DNA from: Ostreococcus lucimarinus
Lineage: Eukaryota
Reading direction: 5' to 3' (one strand)
Length of the DNA stretch: 64,000 nucleotides
Assembly (NCBI GenBank): GCA_000092065.1
Contig: CP000587.1
The notes under the pieces are model-generated. The model was not told where the DNA came from. It searched no databases and saw nothing but the letters and a program-made list of their open reading frames with translations. A program made the position numbers and the translations under genes. This document shows, in pieces, positions 8,601 through 28,934 of this stretch (position 1 is its first letter; each line of letters opens with the position of its first letter).

Positions 8601-9242
8601 GGTGGGTGGCAAGACCAAGTCGGTGGCGCGTTGAATGGTCTTCGCCTAAGTCTTTCGAAACCTAGTGATCGCAGTTTCTCCCCTGATTATGACTACTTCC
8701 CCAAGTACACCTACCGTCTGTGTGAGATGGACGCGCCCTGCGCGCGTCTCTTGAACTCGCGCTTTGCGTGCGTGTTCACCGGGACGTGTCGATTGGCGAA
8801 GACCGTCTGTGATTCTGTCGTCACAACGTGGCAAAGACGTGATATTGGCGTTGAGCGTGCTTTACAACAGTGTGCTGACTTGGCAACGCAAATGTTTGAG
8901 GTATTCCAGGCGATCTCCAAGTCTTCGCGCGAAAGCGCCGCGACGCCAAACGTATCAGATTGTCGGGAAGAATACCTGATCTCGCGTCTCGGTGCGCTCC
9001 TCGAAGAACACAAACGCGTGCAACAATCGCTGTGGTCATCAATTGAAAGTCCCACTATACGTGCCATTTACGACGCGCTCGAGCCTCTGAGTTACGGCTC
9101 TTTCATTTGCGGCGCCGGGTCAGGCGGACACGTGATCGCATTTCTGAAACCATCGGCCACGCGCGAGCGCGTCCACGATGCCGTGCGCGCATGTACCGGC
9201 GCCCCCGACGCGCGCGTTGTGGATGTAGAATTAATTCTGTAA
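5676..9242 (+). CDS. FKGP: Bifunctional L-fucokinase / GDP-L-fucose pyrophosphorylase (plant FKGP-type)
   Basis: A 1188-aa ORF with a verified ATG. Its N-terminal half resembles the fucose-1-phosphate guanylyltransferase region. Its C-terminal half is a GHMP kinase with the ATP motif PKGSGLGTSSILALAML and C-terminal FICGAGSGGHVIAF. The size and domain order match Arabidopsis FKGP. Confidence 0.85.
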   Translation: MSAARDGDAAAIAAAHDRLARHRALLANPERVIAPGAFWDVVALTSSSASQTRAFRARLDHLHARGALPGARERYVVITDPPGARIGSGGATIAVARELKSWFGDAWRDKRVFALHTGGYSERAPQHGTLGKAFAEVPMDCRGCGTPGTILEAQLVQLTPLAATLPPGVFVSCADVALEYGDVEKSLDEETRSAMKRGITALAHPSSVAIGEQHGVFACDEAEVKERVRAMRAGRKLAPLDCRRCLQKPTEQEMRGAGCVMRGYETEVDDWVLTDSCFHIGVEAVEALVELDERRRDVLAGCEICAYGDFMQPLGSDADTSYLDRIDHLASVTSSTHAESETRLRDARRAVADALRGRPLIVIPLFPSRFIHLGTIPEFLYHTTKDVQCLKSLPAPGIPVHMASYVADDFHQPADSVVMSSRIGRASSVGSGSCLVNCDIGRDVVIGANCAMYDVRLEDGTKVENGTFMCTLPITRERFSKRHRESGDDEIDDFSSSMSDCTSADDAVEFVTIVMATDDEVKSRTSSTLCGVPVRDAIDRLELDSGSVWMEGESSTTTLGRFYSVHQSAEESSRAALRMAHVVRSSENAAEYGRFERDHQQQVSISEVLRRYANHGALETHRHSLLRMVLSSTLRRMLETGLPASEWRHRAFNLTSLENELKMERGTVPFEAKTMHLISELLGETEAERLDVRSLRHRLDCSRVALSLALPGALDDARANLARILTESSTVSACGMLARSNMPVCSVRVAYPARFNLAGGWTDTPPYSLERPGAVLHVPGLVNGTKPIVAKLTRIDDPVVRLVMRDDVSGEEIREDVLHYGDLLPNRYSDPMTPFALHKAVLVQFWFREIIEISLEFGCNFIEPALHGKRLIAIDKPGVEIRTEVNLPKGSGLGTSSILALAMLHAMYDFTYGTRLRPRFEEEDRIELTADVQWTDENGKVLDVEDDHRASPKEALKLSDIVNCVLVVEQMITTGGGWQDQVGGALNGLRLSLSKPSDRSFSPDYDYFPKYTYRLCEMDAPCARLLNSRFACVFTGTCRLAKTVCDSVVTTWQRRDIGVERALQQCADLATQMFEVFQAISKSSRESAATPNVSDCREEYLISRLGALLEEHKRVQQSLWSSIESPTIRAIYDALEPLSYGSFICGAGSGGHVIAFLKPSATRERVHDAVRACTGAPDARVVDVELIL

Positions 9243-9351: not shown

Positions 9352-10252
9352 ATGTCCGACCCGCATAAAGCCGTAACTTTTGCCGTGTGGACCCTCGCCC
9401 TGGCAATGACTCACATCTTTTTCCAGCGCAGGCACGCACCCGACAAAGATAAGACTCGTCCGCGCACGCGAACGCAAACCGCAAAGCTTGAGGAGGAGGA
9501 GAGTCGCGCTCGGGACGCGCAGATGCAACAGGTGCTAGACAGCTGGACGTGCCAGCACTGTCAACACGAGAACCGGAGCCTGCGGAGCACGCGCGCGCGA
9601 CGAAGCACTTTGGAATGTTCGAACTGTCGGAACGATTTCATCTTTTGCGTCTCGCCGCGCAAGAGCGCGCACAAGGCTCTGTTGGATGAACGCCCGGTGC
9701 AGGTGCGCGAGACGAGAAACGGCGACGAGAAACGCGAGACTGACCGGGACGCGCGGGACGATCGATGCACAGTGCCGCGCGCCGTATCGAGTGGGGAATG
9801 ATACGCTGTCGCCACATTTTACCGTGAAATTGAACGAATTCTCTCTGCCTGGAACGTCATTGTACGAACGATTTTACAAGAATGTGAAGAACGCCGATCC
9901 GCAATCCATTCGGCTCGCCTTCCATGGAACATCGTTCGCGGCGGCGAAGCTGATACTGAAAAACGGTATGAGTCCATCACGACGAATCAACACACAAGGC
10001 GACTGGTTTACACTGGACATCAACTATGCGCTCACGAGAAGTATCTGTCGTGAGGACCACAGCGCGCAATGGGGTGGTACACCCAAGGACGAAGAGCCAG
10101 ACGCGTACTCGAAGAGCGTTGTGGTGATCTGCTTCGCCGTCTACATGCCAAAAACGATCTACATCGGGGAACACATCGTCTGCACATGCGAGAAACATAG
10201 TCTTCCGATCTCAATGCTCGAGTTTCCGCGAGAGCCTTACGATCCCGCGTAA
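9352..10252 (+). CDS. Small zinc-ribbon (RanBP2-like C2C2) plus PARP-like ADP-ribosyltransferase catalytic-domain protein; exon1 9352..9702, intron 9703..9772, exon2 9773..10252
   Basis: Two overlapping track ORFs (9244..9801 and 9686..10252, different frames) are joined in phase 0 by a 70-nt intron (CAG|GTGCGC...CTGAC...CACAG|TGC). Exon 1 has WTCQHCQHEN...LECSNCRND, a Cys4 ribbon. Exon 2 has the PARP signature IRLAFHGTSFAAAKLILKNGMSP (H), GDWFTLDINYA (Y), SVVVICFAVYMPKTIYIGEHIVCT...PISMLEF (E), matching tankyrase/PARP beta-strand order. The ATG at 9352 was verified. The start is otherwise uncertain. Confidence 0.5.
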
Positions 10253-10385
10253 ATGAATGACTTTGCAAGTAGGAACGTCTTGTAGTGAAACAGAGAAACG
10301 TTGGTTTGCATCGAGGGTTGAATCTTGATTATTACGTCATGCGCGCGTGTATGATGCGCTCCTAGAATGAATAACGCGCAACTAT

Positions 10386-12485
10386 TTACGCGGTCGTGGC
10401 AGGTGCCGCATCTTCCGGGGAACCCTCGTCTTCGAAACAGCACGTCAAGCTTCGCGTGGCGCGTTCGCGCGCGAGCACTTCGAGCAGCGCGGTCAGCTTG
10501 TGCTCACCGTGGACCTTGTTATCACGCGTGCGCACGTTCACCGTTTCGTTCGCTTTTTCGCTTTCGCCGCACACCAAGATATAGTTGAACTGATCGAGCT
10601 GCGCCTCGCGAACCTTCTTTTGCATCTTACGATCCGTGACGTCGACTTCCGCGAAATGACCGGCCTTGCGGAGTTGGCGCTTGACCTCGTAGCAGTAGTC
10701 TCTCGAGGCTTCAGAGATCGGCACAATCATGACTTGTTTTGGCGACAACCAATACGGCCACTTACCCGCAAAGTGCTCGGTCAAAATCGCGAACATACGC
10801 TCGACAGAACCGAGGATAGCTCTGTGAATGATGATCGGCCTCACCGACGAGTTGTTTTCGTCGACGTACGACAGGTCAAATCGAATCGGAAGCTGAAAGT
10901 CGAGCTGGACCGTCGCACACTGGAAGCGACGCTTGAGCGCATCGAAGACAGTGATGTCAATCTTCGGACCGTAGAAGGCGCCGTCACCTTCGTTCAGCTT
11001 CCACTCTCTGCCGCTTCGGTCCAACGCAGACTTGAGCGCCGCCTCCGCCTTGTCCCACACCTCCAACTCACCCAAGTATCCCTCTGGACGCGTCGATAGC
11101 TTCATCTCGTACGTGAGACCAAACACTTCGTACACATCATCTAAGAACTGCAAGAAACCGCTCAACTCCTGTTCCATTTGATCCTCACGGCAGAAGATGT
11201 GCGCGTCGTCTTGCTGGAAGCGGCGAACGCGCGTTAAACCGTGAAGCGCACCCGAGAACTCGTTTCGGTGCAGCACACCGAAATCAGCCACACGCATGGG
11301 GAGTTCACGGTACGTTCTGTGTCGATGCGCGAACATGACGCAGTGACCCGGGCAGTTCATCGGCTTCAGACCAAACTCTTCCTTTTCGACGTTGAAGCTG
11401 AACATGTTTTCCTTGTAGTGCGCCGCGTGACCGGACGTCTTCCAGAGGTCAAAGTTGTAAATATTCGGCGTGATGACTTCGTCATACTCGTATTCCCAAT
11501 ACTTTTCTCGAATAAATTGGACCAAGTTGTTGTAGATGCGCGCGCCGTGCTTTTGGAAAAAACACGAGCCCGGGGAGAGATGGTGGAAAAAGAACAGCTC
11601 TTGGTTCAAGCCAATGGTGCGGTGATCGCGTTTCTTCGCTTCTTCGATGCGCGTGGTGTATTCCTTCATGAGTTTGTCGCTCGGGAAAGTCACGGCGTAC
11701 ACGCGCACGAGCGGGTCCTTGGTGACGTCCGCGCGCCAGTGGGCTCGCGAGCACTGGTTCACGCTGACGCTCTTCAACCACGCGGTGTCCGGCAAGTGCG
11801 GACCGCGGCACAGATCCACCATCGGCCCGCAGCGATAGCACGAAATCGTCGCGTCTTCGGGCAAGTTGGAAATCAACTCAATTTTGAACTTGTTCTCTTC
11901 GAACATCTCCAACGCCTCGGCGCGGCTGACGACGATGCGTTGAAATTCTTGTTTTTCTTTGATGATCTTTTCCATGCGCCCCTTGATGATTTCCGTGTCT
12001 TCCGGCGTCAGCGTGCGCTCGCCCAAGTAGCAATCGTAGTAGAAACCCTCCTCGATCGCCGGTCCGATGGTCAAATCCGCCCCGTACTCCAACTCCAACG
12101 CCTCCCCCAAGACGTGCGCGCTCGAGTGCCAATAACACTCCTTCCCCTCTTCGTCGTCGAAAGTAAACAACGCCAGCGCGCAGTCCCCCTCCAACGGTCG
12201 TCGCATGTCCCAAAACTCCCCATCGACCTTCGCCACGAGCGCGCTCTGCGCCAGCTTCTTGTGTATCCCCAACGCGATGTCGAACGGCGTCGTCGCGAAT
12301 CGCGTCCCATCCTTTTGCGCGCCGTCCGGCAGGGTCACTTTAATCCCTTCCCCCCGCGCCTTCGCCTCTTCGATCCGCGTCAGCTCCCGCGCGCGATACT
12401 TATCGAACAAATCGATCCGGTGCGCGTAATACGGCGACTTCTCTCGCGCGTGATCCGCGTTCGTCGGCGTCGGCGCGTCCGCCAT
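10386..12485 (-). CDS. TARS: Threonyl-tRNA synthetase (class II, cytosolic type)
   Basis: A 699-aa ORF with an N-terminal TGS domain and second-site editing domain. The class II core has FYYDCYLGER.., HRAILGSVERMFAILTEHFAGKWPYWLSP and an anticodon-binding C-terminus. The ATG was verified and sits inside a CCATGG palindrome. Confidence 0.95.
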   Translation of the reverse strand: MADAPTPTNADHAREKSPYYAHRIDLFDKYRARELTRIEEAKARGEGIKVTLPDGAQKDGTRFATTPFDIALGIHKKLAQSALVAKVDGEFWDMRRPLEGDCALALFTFDDEEGKECYWHSSAHVLGEALELEYGADLTIGPAIEEGFYYDCYLGERTLTPEDTEIIKGRMEKIIKEKQEFQRIVVSRAEALEMFEENKFKIELISNLPEDATISCYRCGPMVDLCRGPHLPDTAWLKSVSVNQCSRAHWRADVTKDPLVRVYAVTFPSDKLMKEYTTRIEEAKKRDHRTIGLNQELFFFHHLSPGSCFFQKHGARIYNNLVQFIREKYWEYEYDEVITPNIYNFDLWKTSGHAAHYKENMFSFNVEKEEFGLKPMNCPGHCVMFAHRHRTYRELPMRVADFGVLHRNEFSGALHGLTRVRRFQQDDAHIFCREDQMEQELSGFLQFLDDVYEVFGLTYEMKLSTRPEGYLGELEVWDKAEAALKSALDRSGREWKLNEGDGAFYGPKIDITVFDALKRRFQCATVQLDFQLPIRFDLSYVDENNSSVRPIIIHRAILGSVERMFAILTEHFAGKWPYWLSPKQVMIVPISEASRDYCYEVKRQLRKAGHFAEVDVTDRKMQKKVREAQLDQFNYILVCGESEKANETVNVRTRDNKVHGEHKLTALLEVLARERATRSLTCCFEDEGSPEDAAPATTA

Positions 12486-13980
12486 GGCGTCCCGCTCGAT
12501 CGCCGTCCCGCGCTTCCGCGCGTCGCGTCCCGACGTCGCCGTATCGCGCGCCCGTTCGCTCGCGTTCGGCTCTCAGCGCCTCCGCGTGCCCTCGCGCGCG
12601 GTTCGCGACGCGCGCGACCGTCGCGCGCGTCGTCGTCGCGCTCTGCCGCGGTCGCCTTTCGCGCGCGCGACCCTACGCCCGGGTCGTCTTTTTCGCCCCC
12701 GTTTGGCGACGCGCGCGTCGACCCCCGTTTGGCGACGTCCACCGACCGACGTCGACGCGCCGGCGCGCGCGCGCGCGACGACGCGACGCGCGAGGGACGG
12801 CGCGACTCGAGACGCGCGCGCGATGCGGGCGACGCCGACGACGCACGCGATGGAACGCGCGCGACGCGCGCGCGCGCCGACGCGCGGCGCGGGACGGCGG
12901 ATGATTGCGACGCCCCGACGCCGACGCGCGACGAACGACGACGGCGACGCGACGACGACGACGACGACGACGGCGGCGGAGGCGTCGTACGAGGAGGACG
13001 AGGCGGAACCGCCGCGACGGCGAGGGACGACGACGACGTTTCCGTTGGCGTGCCCGGTGAGTCTGAAGGCGCTGCGCGGCGACGGCGTCGAGCCGACGAG
13101 CGGGCTGAGGTACGAGGAGCGCGAGGGGCGATGGGATCTGACCGTGGGCGCGGCGGAGAACGCGCGGTCGGGGGCGCGGGTCGGGTCGCTCGTGGACCTG
13201 GCGCGCGAGGCGCTGCCGAACGAGTTGAAGGGGTTGCTGCCGACGAGCGGGTACTTTGGGACGGCGACGTTCGAGACGCCGCAGGTGGCGTTCGCGTACG
13301 AGCGAGGGTGGCGCGATAGCTTTAAGCGCGCTGGGTTTCCGGGGCCGGATGAGGAGGCGCGGTTGGCCGTGGACGCGCTCGGGGAGTTCGCGAAGGGCGG
13401 CATCGTCGTCGACGCGTCGTGCGGCAGCGGGTTGTTTACGAGACGGTTTTTGAAGACGTACAAGGGTCGTTCAAAGGCGTACAAGGGCGTGGTGGCGCTC
13501 GACTACTCCGACGCCATGCTGCGACAAGCGAAGCAATACATGGAGGATGAAAACTTACTCGGCGACGCGGACGTGTGCTTCGTGCGCGCGGACATCGCGC
13601 GGTTACCGTTTCCAGAAGGCTCGCTGGACGGCGTGCACGCGGGCGCCGCCATCCACTGCTGGCCGGATGCCAAGACGGGCGTGGCCGAGATCGCGCGCGT
13701 GCTTAAACCAGGCGCGACGTTCTGTGGAACGACGTTCATGAATCCGCAAGTGCCGTTCTTCGACGAGGACCAGCAGGCCATTTTCGACAACGCCGTTCGA
13801 GAATTCTCGGGCACGGTGAACGCCGAGCGCGGGTTCAGATGGTGGTCCAAGAAGGAACTCCGAGACCTGTGCACCGAATGCGGACTCGTCGATTTTAAGT
13901 GCGAGATTCGCAATCAGTTTATCTTTTACAGCGCGAAGAAGCGAACCGTGGACGACGTCGACGCGGTCGAGAAAGCGTAG
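12484..13980 (+). CDS. Class I SAM-dependent methyltransferase with N-terminal zinc-ribbon (LACPV/C..C) motif, plastoglobule-type (At1g78140/At2g41040-like); true start probably downstream
   Basis: SAM motif I is VVDASCGSGLFTRRF and post-I is VALDYSDAML. The acidic D in ...CFVRADIARLPF and FPLACPVSLKAL precede the MT fold, as in the plant family. The first about 110-190 aa are Arg-rich and overlap the ThrRS start. Likely real starts are near 12823 (MRATPTT) or later. Confidence 0.7.
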   Translation: MASRSIAVPRFRASRPDVAVSRARSLAFGSQRLRVPSRAVRDARDRRARRRRALPRSPFARATLRPGRLFRPRLATRASTPVWRRPPTDVDAPARARATTRRARDGATRDARAMRATPTTHAMERARRARAPTRGAGRRMIATPRRRRATNDDGDATTTTTTTAAEASYEEDEAEPPRRRGTTTTFPLACPVSLKALRGDGVEPTSGLRYEEREGRWDLTVGAAENARSGARVGSLVDLAREALPNELKGLLPTSGYFGTATFETPQVAFAYERGWRDSFKRAGFPGPDEEARLAVDALGEFAKGGIVVDASCGSGLFTRRFLKTYKGRSKAYKGVVALDYSDAMLRQAKQYMEDENLLGDADVCFVRADIARLPFPEGSLDGVHAGAAIHCWPDAKTGVAEIARVLKPGATFCGTTFMNPQVPFFDEDQQAIFDNAVREFSGTVNAERGFRWWSKKELRDLCTECGLVDFKCEIRNQFIFYSAKKRTVDDVDAVEKA

Positions 13981-14048: not shown

Positions 14049-15226
14049 TCAAACGAATTCGGCGGTTTCGACTTCCTTCTCGATCAGCGCCACGCACTCG
14101 CCCACACTCGCTCCGCGCGCCATGTAATCCGCGAGCTTCTCCGTCAACCCTAAGTGTCTACGTAACAGACTCGTCGTGTTCAACACCGCCCATCGAACTT
14201 CCGAATCAGACTTTTTCTGCGTAAACGCCAACGCGCGCAGCAATCCGTCGAGTTGTTGTACGTCGCTCAGACCGCCCTCGGCGAATCCAAAAAGGATGTA
14301 TTCCATGCAGATTCCCGCCATGGCGACGCACGCGAACCGGCCGAGCGATGTGGAGGTAATTTTACCCTTTTGTACTTCGCGCTGAAACTCGCCGTCGCAA
14401 AACGCGCAACCCGCTTGAATGTTAAACGCACCGTACGTCTTGAACGCATCCATCGAGCTCAACGTGTAACCTTTAGGAAGAATCCCGATGAGATACGCGG
14501 TGAGAAAGTGCGCCGCTTCGTGTCGACGCAATCGCGTGACGTACTCCTTCGACGTCGATTGCGCGACGGTGTCGAGCGCGAGCGCCGAGACGCCGCCGCC
14601 GAAGGCGATTTGATCGTACGTCGCGCAAAACGCGGCGAAAGCCGCCACTCCTGCGCCTTGCGCGAACGTCGGATGCAAAAAGTACAATCCCGCGACGTAC
14701 GCCACGCCGAGCAATCGCGTGAAATTATCTCGAATTCCCTTAATCGTGCTCTCCGTCGGCGCCAACAACTTCTCCGCCTCGATGTTATTCAACCGCAGTT
14801 CCGCCAACGCATAATCTCGCTTCGGCACATTATGCGCCGCCCCGAACGCTTTCACCACCCCCCTTTGACGCAAGCACATCACCAACTCCACCGCCTCGCG
14901 TTCGGCGCGATCGCTCGCCGTTTTCATCGCCGCCGCGTCGTCGTCGCCGTCGCTCGTCGACGCCCCCGCGCTCTCGCCTCGCATCGCCGTCACCAACCTC
15001 GCGTCCACCGCCTCGAGCGCGTCTCGCAGTCCTCGATCGCACATTCGCTCGATCTCCGCGTCGAACGCTCGCGTCTCGAACCGCTGCGTCGACATCTCCT
15101 CGTCGTTCACCGCGCGTCGACGCCGCGATCGTTCGACACCATCGCGCCGCGACGTCTTTTTCACCACCGCGCGCCCCCGCCCGCGCCGCGCCGCCGCGCC
15201 CGCGTCGAGCGTCACCGCGCGCATCG
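14049..15226 (-). CDS. Conserved organellar protein with HExxH motif (HEAAHFLTAYLIG), FtsH-peptidase-M41-like domain without AAA module
   Basis: The C-terminal 390 aa of track ORF 14049..16340 look like a real protein: ...FLHPTFAQGAGVAAFAAFCATYDQIAFGGG...RLRRHEAAHFLTAYLIGILPKGY...EYILFGFAEGGLSDVQQL. The part above 15230 is an Arg-rich antisense artefact of the gene at 15420..16316. In-frame ATGs lie at 15226 (MRAVTLDAG..., presequence-like) and 15095. Confidence 0.5.
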
Positions 15227-15419
15227 TCTCCCGTCGCGCGCGTCGCGTCGAGTCGTCGCGCGCGCGCGCGAGTGCGGCGATGCGTCGAGTAATCTTTGTG
15301 GATAACGACCGATGCGTCGCGTTCCCCGCACTCACGCGCGCGCGCACGCTCGCGAACCGCTCGCGAATCGCTCGACGCGCGTAAAAACCTACACCGCGCG
15401 ACTCGCGCGATCGACGACG

Positions 15420-16316
15420 ATGATGGCGCAGCAGGGCGTCGCGATGACGCAGAAGTCGCACTTTGCGCGATCGACGCGGGCGTCGATGCGATCGGGCGCG
15501 CGCGCGACGCGCGGGGCGCGCGCGGTCGCGCCGCGCGCGGCGGGCGCGGATGATTTCACGCCGGAAAAGTTCATGGCGAAGTACGACGAGATTTCGTACA
15601 AGATTCCGCCGCTGTTGACGGCGGCGGCGGTGCCCGTCGTGGGGTTGTCGCTGCTGTGCAAGACGCTCACGGGACACGGCTTGCCGGGGACGGCGCTCGG
15701 CTCGATCGAGGGGATCTCTTGGCTCGTGCTCCCGCTCGGGGCGAAGTCGTTCTGGCCGAAGGCGCAAGACATCGCGCGATTGAAGGATAAGACGCCGGAG
15801 AACGTGCTTAAGATTTTGCAGACGGAGGGACGCGCGTACGGCGGATTCGGCGAAGATAGCCGAGGAAAGAACGCGACGGAACGCCTTAATTCGATCGCGA
15901 GTGAGGTCGATCCGAACTCGCCGCTCGGTCAGCAAATGGCTGATATCGCTAGGCAAAAGGCTGAGCGCGAGAAGGAAACGCCCGAGCAACAGGCTGAACG
16001 GGAACGACTTCGCGCGGAACTCGCGGCGTCGGCGCTCGGCATGGCGAACGCCAAGACGGCTGAATTCGAAGCGGAGGCGGACACCAAGGGTAAAGACGGG
16101 TTGTTGGCGAAGCCGGTGACGGAAACGCTCAAGGACAGCATGACTGTTGAAAACTACGACGTCGACGTGACGAAGTATGACGACAAGGCGCTCGGATCGA
16201 AGCTCAACTTGTCCTCCACGGATATCGAAAAGGGCGTGCCGAAGAACAACAAGGGCGATGCCTGGCGCGAACAGTACCGCACGGAAGAAAACGCCGAAGG
16301 TGCGAAGGAAGATTAA
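15420..16316 (+). CDS. Hypothetical protein with transit-peptide-like N-terminus, one TM helix and Lys/Glu-rich C-terminal tail
   Basis: MMAQQGVAMTQKSHFARSTRASMRSGARATRGARAVAPRAAGA reads as a presequence. LLTAAAVPVVGLSLLCKTL is a TM helix, followed by a charged coiled region. Codon usage and composition are coding-like, whereas the overlapping minus frame is Arg/Leu-rich junk. I recognise no family for it. Confidence 0.5.
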   Translation: MMAQQGVAMTQKSHFARSTRASMRSGARATRGARAVAPRAAGADDFTPEKFMAKYDEISYKIPPLLTAAAVPVVGLSLLCKTLTGHGLPGTALGSIEGISWLVLPLGAKSFWPKAQDIARLKDKTPENVLKILQTEGRAYGGFGEDSRGKNATERLNSIASEVDPNSPLGQQMADIARQKAEREKETPEQQAERERLRAELAASALGMANAKTAEFEAEADTKGKDGLLAKPVTETLKDSMTVENYDVDVTKYDDKALGSKLNLSSTDIEKGVPKNNKGDAWREQYRTEENAEGAKED

Positions 16317-16388
16317 CGCGAAATTCTCGAGATTGATCATATGACTCTTGCTCCAACGCTTCGATAAACCACGACGACAAGCAATTTT

Positions 16389-17543
16389 TTAATATACGGA
16401 TGCGTTACCACTTTCTTCAAACGCGAACAAATCGGGATACGCACGCATCGGTTTCTCCAATCCATCGCTCCCGAGTACGTCAATCAGGCAAGAGAGACAG
16501 CGTTTTGCATAAAGTCTGGCGTCCGGATGCCCCCCACGAATACACACGTCCAGAGTCGCGAGGGTGAGGTCTAAAGCTGTCCGTCCAGCTCTCCCTCGAA
16601 AGACGGAGGCGCACTCGGCGTTGCGTTCGACACAATACGTCAAGGCGAACGCGATTTTCGCTTGAAGTCTTCGAGCCGAAACATGTTGCGACAGTGTCCG
16701 GATAACTGCGTGAGGGGCAGCCGCCTCTATCAAGACGTGCAAAACCTCGTCTGCTTCTGCTGAGAGGAAACTCGACTCGCTGGCGCGCTTGAGAACGCTC
16801 GGGAAAACGCATCCAAGTTCACCGTTGATCTTACCTTTTAAATGCACCGCCAGCGTCTTGATGAGACTGAGTGCGGCTTTCGAAATAGAACTTCGCAAGC
16901 TCTCGAGACACGATGTGACGCCGATGATGAAAGGACGCAAATTCGCGGACACCACGCCGACGTGATGAATGACGAGTCGATTCGCGAGCGCAATCGCCTC
17001 CAAGCGCTCTTCCCACGCGCGCTCCGCAGCGCCTCTCAAAACCACCAATACTCCAACCATCACGGTCTCAGGGTCGTTCAAAGGCGCCAAATTTGCGTAC
17101 GTCTCAAACACCGCCCGCTCGCTCTTCTTTCTCGCCGAAGGCGCGCGAACCGGCATCGCCAAACCGGCGGGCGCTCGAGACCCGCTCCGCGTTACCACTC
17201 GACCCGTTCGTTTCCGTTGCTTCAGCGCCATCAACGCATCATTCACGCTTCTCCGCAGCGTCGCTTCTCGTCCTCGACTCGCGCTCGCGCCGACATCTCG
17301 CGTCACCTCGCCGCGTCGTCGTCTCGCGTCCGCCTCCGAGTCCTCGCTCGACGCCGCCTCCTCGACGCCGATGGATGACCCTTTGGACTCCGTCGGACTC
17401 TCCATTCGCGGCGCGTCGCTCGCGTCGTACATCGCCAGCGCATCCACGCGCACGGGGCAGCACGCGATCGCGCGCATGCTCGATCGACGCGCGTCAAAGT
17501 GGCCAAATTTAGCTTCGTCCATGTCAAATGCCAAAGTCACCAA
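16389..17543 (-). CDS. Hypothetical ARM/HEAT-repeat-like protein
   Basis: A 384-aa ORF with helical repeat character (..LVIHHVGVVSANLRPFIIGVTSCLESL.., LHVLIEAAAPHAVIRTLSQHV..). I could not assign a specific family from memory. The start may be an internal Met. Confidence 0.4.
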   Translation of the reverse strand: MVTLAFDMDEAKFGHFDARRSSMRAIACCPVRVDALAMYDASDAPRMESPTESKGSSIGVEEAASSEDSEADARRRRGEVTRDVGASASRGREATLRRSVNDALMALKQRKRTGRVVTRSGSRAPAGLAMPVRAPSARKKSERAVFETYANLAPLNDPETVMVGVLVVLRGAAERAWEERLEAIALANRLVIHHVGVVSANLRPFIIGVTSCLESLRSSISKAALSLIKTLAVHLKGKINGELGCVFPSVLKRASESSFLSAEADEVLHVLIEAAAPHAVIRTLSQHVSARRLQAKIAFALTYCVERNAECASVFRGRAGRTALDLTLATLDVCIRGGHPDARLYAKRCLSCLIDVLGSDGLEKPMRAYPDLFAFEESGNASVY

Positions 17544-17592
17544 CCGGCGTCGTCGCGTCGACGTGGCGCATCGTCACGCGCCCACGCGCGGC

Positions 17593-20500
17593 ATGGCGCG
17601 CACCGCGCGCGCGCGCGCGCGCGGCGACGCGACCCGACGTTCGTGGCGCGCGCGCGTCGCGCTCGCCCTCGTCGGCGCGTGCGTCGGCGCGTGCGCGACG
17701 CGCTCTGTCGACGCGATGTGGTTCGGTAAGAAATCTTCAGGCGCGGCGGAAAGGGTGCGCGCGGACGCGCTGGACGACGGCACGACGCCGGGCGCGCGCG
17801 GCGGGACGGAGTTAATGTCGGCGGCGTTGGAAGCGCGCGTGCCGCGGGCGCTGGTGAAGCGATTTCACGTGGTGAAGTCGCGCGTGCGCGCGCTGAGCGC
17901 CGACGCGCGACGGCCGAACGTGCTGTGGTTGCAGGATTTGCCCAACGATCCCGAGAGCGAGCATCTGCGCGAAGAGAAGAATCGGGAAAAGTTTGCAAAA
18001 TTCATGTTCGTGAGTGAGTGGCAGAAAAGCGCGTATGAGTCGTATTTCGGGGATGTATTCGGAGAGAAGGCGGTGGTGATGAGAAACGCCATCGAGCCGT
18101 TCGAACGTCAACGTAAAGAACCTCCGGAGGATGGAGTGCTGCGGTTGATTTATCACACCACGCCGCATCGTGGATTGGATATATTGATGCACGTGTTCCC
18201 GAGATTGTACGACGCGCACGAGGGTATGTTGCATTTGGACGTGTATTCAAGCTTTTCTATATACGGGTGGCACGAACGAGACCATCCGTACGCGCCGTTG
18301 TTTCAGGCGTGTGAGCAACATCCAGGATGTACGTATCACGGCGCGGTGTCGAATGACGATGTACGAGACGCATTGCGTTCGGCGCATATTTTTGCCTATC
18401 CCTCGACGTGGATGGAGACGTCGTGCATCGCCGCCATCGAGGCGTTGAGCGCAGGCGTGCACGTCGTGACGAGCAGTTTAGGCGCGCTCGTCGAGACAGT
18501 CGGTACTTTCGGTACTATATACGAGTTTAAGCAAGATTGGTCAGAACATGCGGATGCGTTCGAGCAAGCGATGCATGGGGCGATCGAGTCTTACTGGGAG
18601 GTGACTTCGGTTCGTCTCCGGCGAGTACAACAAGTGTATGCGTCGCAAATCTTCGGCTGGGGATCGCCTGGATTAAGGGGACGCGCCGATGACTGGATTG
18701 TACTTCTCGGTGGCATCCACGAGGATTTTAATGGGGGGCGTGACGTAGGGAGGGATGATTTTGATTCAGACGGCGATTATTCCGACGCTCTTTTCGTTGC
18801 AGGTAGAGTGAGAGAATCTCGGGGCGACCAGAAGGGTGCGTACGAAAAGTATCTGCAATCTCTCGAGTTCAATCCTTTGAATTCGTACACTATGGTTGCG
18901 ATGAGTACCTTGGAGATCATGGTCGGCGAATCGAATGGTGATCACTCGACGGCATTACGGGGCATCGAGCGGATGGAGTCTGCCATCGATGACCCCGATG
19001 GCCTCTCGCCGCCGCTCGAGCCGAATTCCGCCGCTTATTTTGGCATCGCCATGCGAAGCGGATACTGGAGAGAGACGCGAAATTGGGCCGCACGCGCGCG
19101 CATTAATTTTGAAAAGGGTTTAAACACTTCTCAACATGGCGAAGACGATTGCTGGGAGCTGTATTACGCCACGATTGTGCCCCACTTTCCGTTGACGCCC
19201 GAGGAGGAGCGCCGCAGGATCCAAAAGTATAATGCCGGAATCGACGAAATGCTCCGCAAGGACGATCTTTTCTGCCGTAATCAAGCAGGTTTAGGCAACG
19301 TGTTTTCAATCGCGTACTACTTCGATGGCGTAGACTATAAGGACGAGTACTCGAGATGGGTGCAACTGAAGTTGAAGGCGTTCCCGGATCTTTTGTACAA
19401 GGCGAATGCGCTCGTGTACGAAAACGACGACAACTATCTGTCGAGCGCGCAGAGCACGGCTGTGCAGAAGGCGCTCATGCGTCGTAAAATCAAGATTGGT
19501 GCCGTCTCATCATTTTTCACGTCCGAGTCGAGCATTTGGGGAAACTTCGGAGAAATCGTGCTCGGGCTTCAACGCGACGCGCGATTTGAAGTCGACATGG
19601 TGCACTACCCACGCGATCCGATCAAGGAGGAGGATATAAATCTCTCGTTGCGTCCCGAACGAAGCATCGTGTTGATAAAGGGCGGTGATCTCGAAACCGT
19701 CAAAGCGAATCGCGAGGCGATCGAAGAGAGAAGGTTTGATGTTCTGATTTATCTTGACCTGTTCATGACGGGCGAGATGCACGATCTCGCCGTGGCGAAA
19801 CTGGCACCGGTACAAATGGTCACGCACGGTCACCCCGTAACATCTGGTATCCCGGCTTGGATCATGGATTATTTTATTTCTTGGGATCTTGCCGAGCTTC
19901 CCGATCAAAAGAAAGCGCAGAGCTTCTATACGGAGGAGTTACTGCTGGTTAAGAGTAAAAAGGCGGCGTGGGAGTACTACAAGCCACGAACTGAAGGAGA
20001 AGTATCGATCATTGTTGGTGAAGCGCCGTTCTATCAATTCACCAGAGAAAATCTTGATTTCATTCCGGCTGAAGAAATGGAGAAACTCTCATCCCGTGAC
20101 GGTTTGACATGGTATTTCTGCCCGCAAGCCGTGTTCAAGTATCACATTACGTTTGACCAGATTTTGGGCAAGATACAAAGAGAAGATCCGAACGCAATAA
20201 TCATTCTCATGAAGCTCGTCGATAACGCGCTTGAGGCGTTGCACGAAAAAGTCGTGGAAAGATTAATTAAGCAAGGAGACGTTGATCTCGACCGCGTCGT
20301 GTTCATTCCGCGAATGAAGCATTACCAGTTAATGGCAATGTACAAGCTGTCAGACGTCGTTTTGGATAGCGTTTATTTTGGTGGCGACACCACGACGCGA
20401 GAAGCTTTCGAAGTTGGTTCGCCCGTGATTACACTACCCGGTAAGACCATTGGTCAGCGTTGGACACAAGCTTATTACAGAGTCATGGGCATCAAGGATT

Positions 20501-20733
20501 TCATCGCCAGAACGGTTGACGAATATGTTCGAATCGCCGTCAAGGCGGCGAACGCAACAGACAAGCAAAAGTCGAATACACGCGCTCGCATCAAGAAAGC
20601 ACTGCATAAAAAATTGTTCAAAAATGCGGATGCTCCGAGGTTGTGGGGGGATGCCATCATGAGTGCGCTGCAGAAGCCCAAGCGTTGGCACTGGATCGAG
20701 GCCGAACCGCTGAAACAACACGACGAGCTTTAG
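17593..20733 (+). CDS. Type-II-membrane-anchored double glycosyltransferase: N-terminal GT4/GT1-like domain plus complete C-terminal OGT-like (GT41) catalytic domain
   Basis: From the ATG at 17593: [27 protein letters not shown] is a signal anchor. Next comes a GT-B C-lobe with [20 protein letters not shown]...[38 protein letters not shown]. A TPR-like middle follows. The C-terminal 500 aa align by motif to the OGT N-cat/C-cat lobes ([28 protein letters not shown] ~ OGT [79 protein letters not shown]...[11 protein letters not shown] ~ OGT [48 protein letters not shown]...QEYEDIAVKLG). The first 208 codons of the track ORF are antisense to the neighbouring gene. Confidence 0.75.
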   Translation: [1046 protein letters not shown]

Positions 20734-20780: not shown

Positions 20781-21512
20781 TCACACCTTCTTCGCCTTGG
20801 CACCGCCGAACAACTTTTTCACCGTGCGCACAATCATCATTATGATGCGCCAACCCCACATCACGGACACGACGAAGATGCCAAGAGCGCCCGCCTTGAC
20901 GATGTACGTGTTCGAGTCGTTCACGACCGTTCGCCATACCAACGGCGGACCGACGATGAGTCGGCAAAGCAAGAACAACAGCGCAAACAACAAGTCATTC
21001 AACGTCGCCAGGAGACTATCCTTCATGTTCAATTCGCGCAACATGGAGCGCAAGTGCAAGCTCGGATTGCTCACCTCCATCAAAAACAAGCACCCGACCA
21101 GTTCGGGGCCACTGCGCCCGGTGATGACTCCGCTCGCGAGCCCGCCGACGGTGAACATGTGATGGACCACATTCTCCACCTCGTTATTCAACAGGCAATA
21201 AAAGAAGTCGTACACGAAATAACCCAGCGACAGCGTCATGCACTCCAAGTGCGCCATCGTGTTCGCTCCGCCTACGTTCTCCAACAGCGCCCCCCACGTC
21301 GGCAGGCATCGCGCGCACATGTAAATGGCCACGACGGCGTGAATGAAGCTCACAGTGCGATTGGAAAAGTCGGCTGTGCGTCGGCGCAGGACGCCGAAGC
21401 GCAGGAAGACGTAGAGTAGCGTCCACCCGACGCTCTGCGGGACAACCTTTTGCAGCGAAGGAATGGCGACGCGGAGGTACTCCAAGTCGAGCGACGGCGA
21501 CTTACTAACCAT
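20781..21512 (-). CDS. TLC-domain (TRAM/LAG1/CLN8 homology) membrane protein, TMEM56/TLCD4-like
   Basis: A 243-aa multi-TM protein. It shows the TLC pattern (..FSNRTVSFIHAVVAIYM.., ..HHMFTVGGLASGVITGRSGPELVGCLFLMEVSNPSLHLRSML..) and a C-terminal KK-rich tail. The ATG was not checked base by base. Confidence 0.55.
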   Translation of the reverse strand: MVSKSPSLDLEYLRVAIPSLQKVVPQSVGWTLLYVFLRFGVLRRRTADFSNRTVSFIHAVVAIYMCARCLPTWGALLENVGGANTMAHLECMTLSLGYFVYDFFYCLLNNEVENVVHHMFTVGGLASGVITGRSGPELVGCLFLMEVSNPSLHLRSMLRELNMKDSLLATLNDLLFALLFLLCRLIVGPPLVWRTVVNDSNTYIVKAGALGIFVVSVMWGWRIIMMIVRTVKKLFGGAKAKKV

Positions 21513-25382: not shown

Positions 25383-26348
25383 CTACCGCGCGTCGTTCGA
25401 GCTATTCGTCGCGCGACTGCTCGCGGCTTTAAAGAATTTCGCCCCGACGTACGCGAGCGTCTTCGTCGGCGACGTGGTCAGGAGCCCCGCGACTGCTTGT
25501 CGCAGCGTGCTCGCGCGTACGATTCGCCTCAGGCAAGCGCGCACCGCGTCGCCGACCCGTTCAGCGTCGTCGCCGACTTCAACTCTATTCAACATAGTCG
25601 TCACCGTCGCCGGCAACGCATCGATGCGCTCGCGCGTCGCTTCAGGGCTCTTATCTTGCCGCCACGTCGACGCCGACGTCTCGACGCCTTTGAGCTCGCG
25701 CACGACGTCCTCGTACATCTCTCGCATCGCCTCCCCGTTCGATCTCGCGATGCGCTCGATCTTCAACCCATCCTCCGCCGCGAACGCGAATCGCACGTCC
25801 CCGTCGTAGGACAACCGCACGATCGCGCGATGAAAATCGAGTTCGCTGAACGTCTCCGGCAGCGTCAACAGCGCCGCGTTCGCCGCGCTCCGCGCGTTCC
25901 GCGCCTGCGCGTTCACGATCGCATCGCACGCGCGCGCCGTCTCGTGCGGCTTGTGCATCCTTCCCGCGACGAATAAATGCTTCCATCGCTCTAAATCATC
26001 CACGACGTCGCGCACGTCGACGACGCCGTACTTGTACGCGCGTCCCCGTTCGTCCCGCAGGCGCGCGTTGTAGTGCGCGTCCGCGCCCAGCGTCGTCGCC
26101 GCGCCGTGAATCGCGCGCCCACCGCCCAGGCGCGCGTGCCACGCGTAGTGCGATGGATTTCGCGTCGCGTTCGCGTCGTGCCACGCCGCGGGATCGCGCA
26201 CGGCGACGAGCACGTCGAGCGCGCGCTCGGGTCCGGCGACCGACGCGTCGGCGAGCACGGCCGAGCCGTACGCCAGCGCGTGCTCCACGGGCGGCAGCGC
26301 GGCGAGGACGCCGGCGATGCGTTCGCGCGCGCGCGCGTTCGCGCGCAT
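25383..26348 (-). CDS. TAM41: Tam41/MMP37-family mitochondrial phosphatidate cytidylyltransferase
   Basis: ALAYGSAVLADASV..DVLVAVRDPAAWHDANATRNPSHYAW...KYGVVDVRDVVDDLERWKHLFVAGRMHKP matches the Mmp37 family signature. The ATG was verified. Confidence 0.75.
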   Translation of the reverse strand: MRANARARERIAGVLAALPPVEHALAYGSAVLADASVAGPERALDVLVAVRDPAAWHDANATRNPSHYAWHARLGGGRAIHGAATTLGADAHYNARLRDERGRAYKYGVVDVRDVVDDLERWKHLFVAGRMHKPHETARACDAIVNAQARNARSAANAALLTLPETFSELDFHRAIVRLSYDGDVRFAFAAEDGLKIERIARSNGEAMREMYEDVVRELKGVETSASTWRQDKSPEATRERIDALPATVTTMLNRVEVGDDAERVGDAVRACLRRIVRASTLRQAVAGLLTTSPTKTLAYVGAKFFKAASSRATNSSNDAR

Positions 26349-26450
26349 TCGAGCCGCGCGCGATCGATCGCGACGGCGCGCGCCGCGGTGTGCGGCGTCG
26401 GTTACGGCGCGCGTTCGTTCCTCTATCCACTCTATTCTACAGTAGAATTT

Positions 26451-27077
26451 CTACGTCTTCCTAGGTTTCTTCTTCGACGACGGCAGCGCGTCGACGACGT
26501 CGCGCTCGCCGTTCGCGTCCGCGCCCTCGCGCGCGTCTCGCGCCGCCGCGCTCGCCGCCGCCGCCGCCGCCGCCGCGCGTCGCTCCTCCGTCTTCGTCGT
26601 CAACTCTCCCGCGCCCACGTCCTCCGCGTCCTCCCGCGCGATCCTCAGATTTCCTATCTCCCCGTCCACCGCCTCCAGCGTGAACGTCCCGCTCGCTTCG
26701 TCGAACACCAGCGCGCAGTCGATCCCGACGTCTTCGCTCGCGCCGTCGTCGCTCGCGCGCGGCGCCTCCCCCTCCTCCGCGTCCTCCCTTCCGCGCGCGC
26801 GTCGCGCCCGTCGCATCCCGCGGTACCGCACCGCGCGACGATCGCCCTCGCGCGCGTCGCCGTCCCGCACCGCGTCGAACGCGACGTCGACGGCGCCGCA
26901 CGGCGAGATTTTCACGCGCGCGCGCGCCGTCGCGTCCGCGTTCGACGCGCTGAAATCGTACCGGAACACCGTCAGCGGCGGCGCGGCGCGCGCGCGCGCG
27001 TCGCCGAAGCGCTCGCGGACGCTGTCGCCGACGCGCACGGCGTAGACGTCGCGCGCGCGCGGCGCGCGCGGCGGCAT
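26451..27077 (-). CDS. Hypothetical acidic protein with C-terminal basic NLS-like tail (SSKKKPRKT)
   Basis: The 3' part of track ORF 26451..27935, counted from the in-frame ATG at 27077 (MPPRAPRARDVYAVRVGDSVRERFGD...). Its composition is not Arg-runs and looks protein-like (..GIDCALVFDEASGTFTLEAVDGEIGNLRIARED..). The rest of that track ORF is antisense to the Pol kappa gene. No family assigned. Confidence 0.35.
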   Translation of the reverse strand: MPPRAPRARDVYAVRVGDSVRERFGDARARAAPPLTVFRYDFSASNADATARARVKISPCGAVDVAFDAVRDGDAREGDRRAVRYRGMRRARRARGREDAEEGEAPRASDDGASEDVGIDCALVFDEASGTFTLEAVDGEIGNLRIAREDAEDVGAGELTTKTEERRAAAAAAAASAAARDAREGADANGERDVVDALPSSKKKPRKT

Positions 27078-27140
27078 TCGTCGCCGCGATCGATTCCGGC
27101 ACCGCGCGACGCGTCGCCGTGTGACGCGCGCGCGCGCGCG

Positions 27141-28934
27141 ATGGACGACGACGAGGCGTGGACGGAGCGAGACGCGCTGGATTGGCGCGATGACGACGAC
27201 GACGCGAGCGAGGACGAGGGCGCGAGCGCGCGAGGCGCGGATCACGAATTCGACGGTTGCGACGCGATGGCGACGAAAACGAACGACGACGACGCGCGGC
27301 GCGACGCGAGCGCGGACGCGACGCGCGCGCCCGCGGCGCTGTCGTACGGAAGCGTGTTCACGCACGCCAAGGCTGGGATGGAGAACGTCGATCGCGAGCG
27401 CGTGGCGAGGGTGGTGTACGACGCGACGGTGGGGACGCCGCACCACGAAAACGAGACGCGCAAGGAGCGAGCGACGTCGAAGAGGATCGCGGCGATGAAG
27501 GCGAAGGGCCAGGGAATGACGAAGACGGAGTGGGAGACGTTCGGACGACGGGCGGACGAGCGGGCGCGAGCGATGGAGAGGACGCGGAGCGGGGCGAGAA
27601 AGTGGTTGGTGGTGGACATGGATGGATTTTACGCGGCGTGCGAGGAGTTGTACGATCCGGCGTTGAAGAGCGTGCCCGTGGGCGTGGCCGCGGGACCGTC
27701 GAGCGTGTTGACGACGGCGAATTATGTGGCGAGAAAATACGGGGTGCGGGCGGCCATGCCGGGATTCATCGCGAAAAAGTTGTGCCCAGATTTGGTATTC
27801 GTGAAGCCCGACTTTAAAAAGTACGTCAAGGCGTCGAACGAGTCGCGAGGCGTGTTCGCGCAGTACAATCCCGACTACATCGCCGGTTCGCTCGATGAGG
27901 CGTACATCGAGGTGACGGAGTATTGCGAGAAGCACGACACGACGATGGAGGCGATCGCGGAGGAAATTCGCTCAAAGGTGAAGGAAGCGACGGGCGGATT
28001 GACGTGCTCCGTCGGCGGCGGGTGCTCGCGTCGATTGGCCAAAGTGTGCTCAGACTTCAACAAGCCAAACGGGCAGTACATCTTGGGTACGACGCGTGAC
28101 GATATTCTGAAGTTCCTTCGCGACTTGCCTGTGCGCAAAATGTACGGCATTGGGAAGACGCTGGAGAGGATACTGAACGAGTTTGATATTAAGACGTGCG
28201 GCGATTTGCTCGCAAAGCGCGCGACGATGCTCGCCTTGTTCACACCGAAAGCGTTCGACTTTTTGCTGGGCATCGCGCTCGGCATCGGTACCGAGTGTCA
28301 TCCGCGCGAAACGCCCGAGGGCTCGGGCGGACGAAAAGGTGTTTCCAAGAGCGAAACTTTCAAGGCGACGGCGGACAAGGCTTACTTGGATGCGAAAATG
28401 ACCGAGCTCGCGACCGAGGTGGCGTTAGAATGTCAGAGGCTCAATTTGAAAGGCCGCATGGTGGCCGTGAAGCTGAAACGAAGCACGTTCGACGTTATTC
28501 AACGTCAGACCACGCTCGCGGGGCCGACGAACGATGTCAAGACCATCGTGAATAGCGCGTTGCGATTAATGCGCAACGAAAACTCAATCGGGGCGAACAT
28601 GACTCTACGCCTCGTCGGCGCGCGAGTTTCGCAATTCGATCACGAAGAAGATGTGCCAGAAGATCAGAAGCGTATAGATAACTTTCTTCTTTCACCTAAG
28701 ACGGCCTTGACGCAAGCCGTCGCGTCTGTAGAAGAAACCTGGACGTGCGACGAGTGCGCGCGGACATTTCCACTGAAGCAGCAGACTGAACATCTCGACT
28801 GGCACGTCGCGAGACGATTGCAATCAATGGACGACGCCGAACAGTCGCGCGCGCGATTCGCGGCTTCGCACAAAGTGCCGTCGAAGAAACCTCGTCAAGG
28901 CGACCTACGAAGCATGTTCTTCACGAAGAAATGA
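27141..28934 (+). CDS. POLK: DNA polymerase kappa (Y-family, DinB/POLK) with C-terminal UBZ-type zinc finger
   Basis: It has the Y-family palm/fingers motifs (WLVVDMDGFYAACEEL, SLDEAYIEVT, GGLTCSVGGGCSRRLAKVCSDFNKPNGQYIL, the little-finger region) and the N-clasp typical of Pol kappa. UBZ: WTCDECARTFPLKQQTEHLDWHVARRLQ. The first 356 codons of the track ORF are Arg-rich upstream read-through. The ATG MDDDEAW.. is used. Confidence 0.85.
   Translation: MDDDEAWTERDALDWRDDDDDASEDEGASARGADHEFDGCDAMATKTNDDDARRDASADATRAPAALSYGSVFTHAKAGMENVDRERVARVVYDATVGTPHHENETRKERATSKRIAAMKAKGQGMTKTEWETFGRRADERARAMERTRSGARKWLVVDMDGFYAACEELYDPALKSVPVGVAAGPSSVLTTANYVARKYGVRAAMPGFIAKKLCPDLVFVKPDFKKYVKASNESRGVFAQYNPDYIAGSLDEAYIEVTEYCEKHDTTMEAIAEEIRSKVKEATGGLTCSVGGGCSRRLAKVCSDFNKPNGQYILGTTRDDILKFLRDLPVRKMYGIGKTLERILNEFDIKTCGDLLAKRATMLALFTPKAFDFLLGIALGIGTECHPRETPEGSGGRKGVSKSETFKATADKAYLDAKMTELATEVALECQRLNLKGRMVAVKLKRSTFDVIQRQTTLAGPTNDVKTIVNSALRLMRNENSIGANMTLRLVGARVSQFDHEEDVPEDQKRIDNFLLSPKTALTQAVASVEETWTCDECARTFPLKQQTEHLDWHVARRLQSMDDAEQSRARFAASHKVPSKKPRQGDLRSMFFTKK

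Follow-up and report, generated by a model that had tools for sequence, protein, structure and literature searches.

Signalling by O-GlcNAc and O-fucose through glycosyltransferase family 41 (GT41) is described as cytoplasmic and nuclear, and the family is treated as strictly nucleocytoplasmic in eukaryotes. In the lumen of the animal endoplasmic reticulum (ER), O-glycosylation of proteins is performed by EOGT (GT61), POFUT1/2, and POGLUT1-3. They are soluble or retained in the ER, carry a signal peptide and a KDEL-like C-terminus, and use nucleotide sugars to attach single sugars to proteins. Their families (GT61, GT65, GT68, and GT90) and folds are unrelated to GT41, and they recognise folded EGF or TSR domains. 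To our knowledge, none of them is a GT41 enzyme or is fused to a second glycosyltransferase. A GT41 enzyme and a GT4 enzyme act in sequence in Actinobacillus pleuropneumoniae, where ApNGT (GT41) and then ApAgt/alpha6GlcT (GT4) attach Asn-linked Glc followed by alpha-1,6-Glc to adhesins (PMC12159676). Ochrophytes carry expanded GT41 repertoires, with about 10 genes per brown-algal genome and many orthogroups far from OGT and SPY (PMC11468063); the terms "signal peptide" and "endoplasmic" are both absent from the main text of that study. Here we describe a gene of the picoalga Ostreococcus lucimarinus, found in a 64,000-nucleotide stretch of contig CP000587.1 (assembly GCA_000092065.1; hereafter the window). 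Its product joins a GT4 module, a TPR-like region, and a GT41 module between a predicted signal peptide and an HDEL at the C-terminus.

The coding sequence (window 17593..20733, plus strand) comprises 1046 codons and a stop, needs no intron, and lies within an uninterrupted open reading frame (ORF) at 16969-20733 (+). A preliminary description, made from the letters of the window alone, had proposed a 1046-residue product in which a GT4-like domain is fused to a complete two-lobe GT41 domain collinear with human OGT, in a class that is little characterised. The intact ORF and its translation agree with that product, and the domain searches agree with the fusion. Pfam matched PF13844 (Glyco_transf_41; 7.6e-19, 67.8 bits against a cut-off of 25) and PF00534 (Glycos_transf_1; 1.2e-15, 57.9 bits against a cut-off of 26.4). 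Both lie above their gathering thresholds, so that the GT41 assignment holds, and PF13844 was matched by 22 of 23 aligned family members. Searching the PDB with phmmer aligned both the N-cat lobe (633-770) and the C-cat lobe (853-1000), down to E = 1e-13, with human and Drosophila OGT, Arabidopsis SPY, XcOGT, and Thermobaculum OGT. NCBIfam held no equivalog near its cut-off for either module, and the protein is indeed uncharacterised.

An AlphaFold2 model built on the 23 family members reached a predicted local distance difference test (pLDDT) score of 85.2 and a predicted template modelling (TM) score of 0.81, with disorder limited to residues 1-57 and 1038-1046. The structural comparison that had been suggested at the outset was made with this model, and its best PDB matches by Foldseek were SPY (4e-24), human OGT, and XcOGT over 650-890 aligned columns (E from 4e-24 to 1e-21; TM 0.70 when normalised to the target XcOGT). 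Because these three were the best matches, residues ~380-1040 can be taken, as modelled, for the equivalent of a short-TPR OGT. A search of viral folds in BFVD returned only generic GT4 proteins and multi-glycosyltransferase giant-virus proteins, at low TM.

The GT4 module spans residues ~58-375 (17764..18717, plus strand), as delimited by Pfam, the domain model, and the fold search. PF00534 and PF13692 match residues 176-329. The preliminary description had seen only a C-lobe here. This could not be maintained, as the domain model (pLDDT 81 when modelled alone) aligns over both lobes with compact GT4 enzymes. The best PDB folds were SenB, SdgB, GlgM, PimA, MshA, and GtfA (TM 0.5-0.66 over ~270-370 columns, residues 56-380); against the 320-residue SenB, the model aligned over 276-359 columns with a TM of 0.57-0.64. 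In the model the N-lobe is reduced to four strands and the C-terminal helices cross back onto it, indicating a complete, compact GT-B enzyme of two Rossmann lobes, though a reduced one. Its motifs include a GGTEL glycine loop, YHTTPHRG (187-194), and a Cys pair (C240/C246). An E-x7-E motif, the mark of retaining GT4 enzymes, is formed by E275-TSCIAAI-E283 (18415..18441, plus strand). All 23 members of the family alignment have E283, and at least 90% of them have E275. The module thus combines all three features by which CAZy GT4 membership was judged: PF00534 above threshold, E-x7-E, and a two-lobe fold.

Between the two catalytic modules lies a TPR-like helical region (residues ~376-600; 18718..19392, plus strand), recognised by the family profile and by Foldseek. 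It consists of about three helix pairs (393-510), then transitional helices with conserved DDCW (C520) and LFC (C561) motifs. Family-profile positions 373-450 match consensus-TPR proteins, and the Foldseek alignments to SPY, OGT, and XcOGT run on through their TPRs. With single sequences, Pfam TPR matches were marginal and confined to 1 of the 23 family members. The helical segment that the preliminary description had placed here is therefore present, but it is no mere linker: it is TPR-like and retains the classical TPR-GT41 layout.

The GT41 N-cat lobe (residues ~601-790; 19393..19962, plus strand) aligns to the OGT N-cat lobe (LRVGYVSSDFGNH...). It carries the invariant motifs SSIWGNFG (646-653) and THGHPVTSG (744-752; window 19822-19848), with H747 invariant among 80 aligned relatives. 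The C-cat lobe (residues ~835-1030; 20095..20682, plus strand) was delimited by PF13844 over residues 860-1006 and by alignment to the OGT profile. Within it, YFCPQAVFK carries K849 (window 20137-20139), which aligns with the pyrophosphate Lys of OGT (K842), corresponds to SPY K665, and is invariant in the 80 relatives. FGGDTTTRE (929-937; window 20377-20403) aligns with the GHTT..D block of OGT (920-925), which reads GTTT..E in SPY and GDTT..E here (931-937). T933/T934 are conserved in all 22 family members covering those columns; E937 is invariant in the 80 relatives and present in 22 of 23 in the family set. Every feature used to define GT41 was accordingly found: PF13844 above threshold, TPRs with a two-lobe GT-B fold, and the catalytic Lys, Thr pair, and ribose acid.

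The positions that set donor specificity differ from those of both characterised subfamilies. In OGT the donor signature is L866/R904/C917, with H901 on uracil; in SPY it is K689/A731/Y744, with H728 on guanine (PMC10027727). The equivalent residues here, assigned by sequence alignment rather than from a ligand complex, are M873 (M, I, or V in the family), M916 (M in 21 of 23), and F929 (F in 22 of 23), and the base-stacking His is replaced by L913 (L in 22 of 23). Neither the OGT signature for UDP-GlcNAc nor the SPY signature for GDP-fucose is present, M873 being a residue similar to L866. In two further comparisons, made with OGT only, the sugar-pocket L653 is replaced by H745, which is invariant in the family and turns GYP into GHP, and H558 and D554 have no conserved equivalent. 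This pattern suggests that phosphate and ribose binding are kept, and that base and sugar recognition would be of a third type. Since the specificity residues of OGT and SPY are both replaced, UDP-GlcNAc and GDP-fucose are each unlikely donors.

Both ends of the protein bear targeting motifs. Residues 1-41 (17593..17715, plus strand) form a predicted cleavable signal peptide, with an Arg-rich n-region, an h-region at V22-A35, and V39-D40-A41, after which cleavage would fall before M42. The hydrophobic core comprises 14-15 uncharged residues with Arg at both ends. Its Kyte-Doolittle maximum over 19 residues is 1.48, and an internal buried segment scores as high. Orthologous N-termini are otherwise hypervariable and unalignable, but a [V/I/A/S]-[D/E]-A motif is kept after the core; together with the length of the core, it fits the -3/-1 rule of signal peptidase. 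The GT4 fold begins ~20 residues past the core in the model, leaving no stem region.

At the other end, residues 1043-1046 (20719..20730, plus strand) form the HDEL of the translated QHDEL terminus. HDEL, KDEL, and RDEL are the canonical ligands of the KDEL receptor (PMC8248988). One of these three ends 13 of the 23 aligned family members, including the window protein and P0002 (KDEL); the remaining C-termini include HDEF, RDEF, KNEL, and HVEL. The 10-15 residues ahead of the motif are variable among family members. The short h-region, the conserved [V/I/A/S]-[D/E]-A, and the [H/K/R]DEL ends together indicate a soluble enzyme of the ER lumen, or at least an ER-retained protein with luminal domains, rather than a Golgi type-II enzyme. 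The protein ends as soluble ER residents do, and an anchor of ~18-22 residues, a stem, and freedom from an ER-retrieval signal, which mark Golgi type-II enzymes, were not found. Its N-terminal signal and HDEL would also set it apart from the location described for GT41, nucleocytoplasmic in eukaryotes and cytoplasmic in bacteria. Thus, of the topology put forward in the preliminary description, membership of the secretory pathway is retained as a prediction, and the Golgi-type signal anchor and type-II membrane topology give way to a predicted cleaved signal peptide, the very outcome that the description had named as contradicting it.

Relatives extend this picture well beyond one alga. The full GT4-TPR-GT41 layout occurs in ~30 clusters, among them proteins of Ostreococcus tauri (63-64% identity), Mantoniella antarctica (51%), and the diatom Fragilariopsis cylindrus (OEU18512.1). 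Databases already list the proteins as, for example, "Glycosyl transferase, family 1" or "predicted OGT (SPINDLY family)". A profile of the helical and GT41 regions, searched against 1.84 billion representatives, gave 2570 matches at E <= 1e-30. The top matches include many proteins of 600-700 residues that match end to end and have no GT4 module, one being a transcript of the diatom Corethron pennatum. Many of these unfused forms combine a classical signal peptide with a C-terminus such as KEEL, DDEL, SDEL, NDEL, KNEL, GEL, or the like. Among the best 150 of the 2570 matches, 29 end in -EL, and an N-terminal hydrophobic core was present in 14 of 21 full-length -EL proteins versus 9 of 98 others. 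Also among the best 150 are bacterial multi-repeat TPR-GT41 proteins with a GHP[V]T[TS]G motif. Six proteins in this set (P0086, P0092, P0103, P0151, P0155, and P0159) are bacterial-looking giant polyproteins of 1790-3855 residues, built of 3-12 tandem TPR and GT41-like units with GHPxTTG.

A separate group of relatives comes from AT-rich contigs. Five proteins (P0029, P0030, P0096, P0097, and P0098) carry the modules in reverse order, helical-GT41 and then GT4, and have neither a signal peptide nor a -DEL end. Some add GT25 and Gly_transf_sug domains; P0030 has both in the same polypeptide, making four glycosyltransferase modules. The contigs are gene-dense with 21-30% GC. On one (L003, 1-16415; 30%) the neighbours encode a dynamin, a SET protein, a dUTPase, a GT25 protein, a class-I aminoacyl-tRNA synthetase, and a PLOD-type glycosyltransferase; on another (L001, 1-24125; 21.5%) the permuted gene lies near GT2, AAA, and Ham1-like genes. 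Both contigs resemble mimivirid giant viruses, the first in its gene set. Scanning IMG/VR with GQRWTQA and SSIWG[NS]FG returned a single 2.9-kb contig, probably algal; in the viral relatives these motifs have diverged, and protein searches alone recovered them. The cysteines follow the same division. C520 of DDCW is kept by 48 of the 49 secretory-type forms and by none of the 11 AT-rich virus-like forms, and C240/C246 are invariant in the fused ER forms and absent from the five permuted proteins, as an oxidising compartment would predict. That the pair stays joined although its order is shuffled argues that the two modules work together.

From these data we propose that the window protein is a soluble, bifunctional protein glycosyltransferase of the ER lumen, arranged as signal peptide, GT4, TPR-like region, GT41, and HDEL, a reading that we consider somewhat better than an even bet. 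Characterised GT41 enzymes provide the model for how it might work: an extended segment of a secretory or membrane protein would be bound in the ER by the TPR-like array together with the cleft that separates the GT41 lobes. The GT41 module, acting with inversion of configuration, would then attach the first sugar from a nucleotide-sugar donor, with K849 stabilising the pyrophosphate, T933/T934 binding the phosphates, and E937 binding the ribose. The fused retaining GT4 module (E-x7-E) would add an alpha-linked second sugar to the glycan, as ApAgt does after ApNGT in the bacterial pair. Several observations weigh against this proposal. The clade has no characterised member, and its TPR similarity is seen at the profile and fold level only. 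OGT H558 and D554 are not conserved, and the base-contact residues (H901/H728, R904, K689) are replaced by L913, M916, and M873, such that nucleotide binding is assumed on the strength of the phosphate- and ribose-binding residues. Were the N-terminus to stay uncleaved, the product would be a type-II membrane protein of the ER, with its luminal orientation unchanged; were an upstream ATG at 17521 the real start, the n-region would be unusually long (45 residues).

The acceptor is one point on which the proposal could fail. A luminal enzyme acting on a lipid-linked or free glycan or on a polysaccharide, such as a precursor of surface glycoconjugates, seems unlikely to us but deserves weight, as GT4 enzymes mostly use lipids, sugars, and small molecules, and PimA, MshA, GlgM, and SenB are among the closest folds. 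Loss of the acceptor-side H558 and D554 of OGT would also fit, and polysaccharide synthesis has been considered as a role for the GT41 enzymes expanded in ochrophytes, although the same study does not favour GT41 for fucan synthesis (PMC11468063). Other evidence points to protein. The GT41 activities listed by CAZy (OGT, SPY, and NGT/HMW1C) all glycosylate proteins, the window protein, like OGT, SPY, and XcOGT, keeps a TPR-like array before its GT41 lobes, and two GT4 enzymes that modify proteins, SdgB and GtfA, also appear in the fold matches.

Location is a second such point. In a type-II, signal-anchored Golgi glycosyltransferase, an anchor left uncleaved would follow a short tail in the cytoplasm, with the catalytic domains lying in the Golgi lumen. 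The Arg-rich segment ahead of the hydrophobic stretch would orient such an anchor by the positive-inside rule, a helix is modelled over residues 3-30 (though with pLDDT <45), and some orthologues (P0006, P0017, and P0021) have longer cores of 17-20 residues. We nevertheless judge this topology quite improbable given the short core between Arg residues with its maximum of 1.48 over 19 residues, the conserved [V/I/A/S]-[D/E]-A that follows it, a GT4 fold starting too close for a stem, and the H/K/RDEL ends of most orthologues, which mark residents of the ER and not of the Golgi. That only one module is catalytic, with the other a pseudo-glycosyltransferase or a carbohydrate-binding, peptide-binding, or scaffolding domain, is very doubtful: non-canonical uracil/guanine-contact positions (L913, M916, and M873), a GT4 N-lobe cut to four strands, and the pseudo-glycosyltransferase VldE among the GT4 fold matches would allow it, but K849, T933/T934, E937, E275/E283, and R193/G194 are kept in relatives down to ~40% identity, and the modules stay paired even when permuted on virus-like contigs.

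The start of the gene allows two choices. From an in-frame ATG at 17521 the product would be longer by 24 basic residues, and the hydrophobic segment is included whichever start is used. We favour 17593 because its context (GGC-ATG-G) is better than that of 17521 (TCC-ATG-T). Copies from marine metagenomes that are 100% identical have been called both ways, as 1070 residues (from 17521) and as 1046 (from 17593). An exact database look-up found the 1070-residue call on record, and no record of the 1046-residue product. The upstream ATG shares a CATG palindrome (window 17519-17523) with the ATG of a divergent CLASP_N-like ORF on the minus strand (16389-17543; beginning MDEAKF...), and at most one of the two overlapping ATGs is likely to be a real start. 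P0003, an orthologue from another species, also starts MSNVK, so the stretch is conserved for one reading or the other. A local dip in GC raised recent horizontal transfer as a possibility. This was rejected because GC content at third codon positions in the gene (0.634) agrees with that of two neighbours, the fucose-salvage gene FKGP (0.642) and the CLASP_N-like gene (0.638).

Downstream, a TLC-domain gene on the minus strand (20781-21512) converges on the glycosyltransferase gene and ends 47 bp past its stop codon, in line with the ~50 bp of the preliminary description. FKGP, a bifunctional L-fucokinase/GDP-fucose pyrophosphorylase of 1188 residues (5676-9242, plus strand), lies 8.35 kb upstream. 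Its domains are a fucose pyrophosphorylase (5.6e-70) and GHMP kinase N and C, and its presence means that this alga has a fucose salvage route. The preliminary description had the location of FKGP right, but its hint at GDP-fucose does not survive. Five ORFs lie between the two genes (a threonyl-tRNA synthetase, a methyltransferase, two Pfam-less ORFs, and the CLASP_N-like ORF), and the K689/A731/Y744 of SPY reads M/M/F here. Operons are not a feature of this eukaryotic genome, and the SPY-type signature is absent, so we give the proximity no functional weight. Downstream synteny (TLC, Cupin_8, and onward) is retained on a related contig (L007), with the upstream side beyond the contig end. 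Neither TLC nor FKGP occurs within 10 kb of the gene in L008, a more distant genome, and a functional link to FKGP was rejected on all three counts.

The gene on L008 (1-23063, part of a 95-kb contig) lies at 10001-13063. Its product, P0006, ends QHVEL and is 66% identical to the window protein and 91% to P0005. The flanks have 36-37% GC, compared with 47% for the gene, and hold many short Pfam-less ORFs and a 1210-residue Nucleotid_trans protein. The contig may come from a Bathycoccus-like alga, as its low-GC outlier chromosome, or may be a prasinovirus-like element that has taken up the host gene.

Two other parts of the window drew our attention. At 14049-16340 (-; 763 residues) and 15312-16316 (+; 334 residues), ORFs overlap on opposite strands with no Pfam match in either. 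A long Arg-rich stretch of low complexity occurs in the minus-strand ORF, whose true extent is probably shorter; metagenome calls there give a 391-residue minus-strand gene and a 334-residue plus-strand gene. At 26073-28934 (+) lies a polymerase-eta-like Y-family DNA polymerase with IMS, IMS_HHH, and IMS_C domains and a C-terminal ubiquitin-binding zinc finger (UBZ); as listed, it has a GTG start and a ~500-residue N-terminal extension that is probably non-coding.

Full-text literature searches found no description of a luminal GT41 enzyme, a GT4-GT41 fusion, or a viral GT41. Starting from the architecture and the targeting signals, which are solid, we tentatively suggest a wider picture, possible but short of probable, in which location, acceptor, and donors are predictions. 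Many protists would have a sizeable, overlooked ER-lumen branch of GT41, marked by a signal peptide and an -xxEL end, an OGT/SPY-like system that glycosylates secretory and surface proteins apart from the EOGT, POFUT, and mucin-type pathways. In Mamiellophyceae and diatoms it would be fused to GT4 and build a disaccharide with one enzyme, and giant viruses would have captured or shared a permuted, untargeted unit for use on their own proteins in the cytoplasm. If this is true, ER-lumen GT41 enzymes conserved across green picoalgae, diatoms, and other protists would widen the known site of action of the family and would point to a new type of protein glycan on the surface of abundant marine phytoplankton, a surface that prasinoviruses and grazers encounter. 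The hypothesis is directly testable, as Ostreococcus tauri can be genetically manipulated and the gene is a single intronless ORF with clear catalytic residues. A fused GT41-GT4 unit could also serve glyco-engineering, as the bacterial NGT/alpha6GlcT pair already does.

Compared with known systems, the window protein is closest in structure to SPY, the GT41 protein O-fucosyltransferase SPINDLY of Arabidopsis, and to human or bacterial OGT (8dth, 3pe3, and 2jlb), its best structural matches. It shares with them TPR-like repeats followed by a two-lobe GT-B, the catalytic Lys, the phosphate-binding Thr pair, and the ribose-binding acid. In contrast to these nuclear and cytoplasmic enzymes, it is predicted to reside in the ER lumen, has only about three TPR-like repeats, and carries an extra N-terminal GT4 enzyme. 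It further differs in M873/M916/F929, in the Leu at the position of the stacking His, and in His745 at that of OGT L653.

With ApNGT and ApAgt it shares the pairing of GT41 and GT4, here within one protein. The bacterial enzymes, however, are separate cytoplasmic proteins encoded in an operon, and NGT has an all-alpha domain instead of TPRs; the similarity of NGT to the window protein is marginal (E = 0.2-0.3 against the PDB; 19.7 bits against a cut-off of 1000 in NCBIfam). Among ochrophyte proteins, OEU18512.1 and the Corethron pennatum transcript belong to the same GT41-like clade as the window protein; the subfamily of Mamiellophyceae and diatoms described here bears a GT4 module. That module has the fold, the Glycos_transf_1 domain, and the E-x7-E motif of compact GT4 enzymes of the GT-B type (the selenosugar synthase SenB, PimA, MshA, and the protein O-GlcNAc transferases SdgB and GtfA). 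It differs from them in its low identity (11-20%), its reduced N-lobe, and its place in a three-part protein of predicted luminal location.

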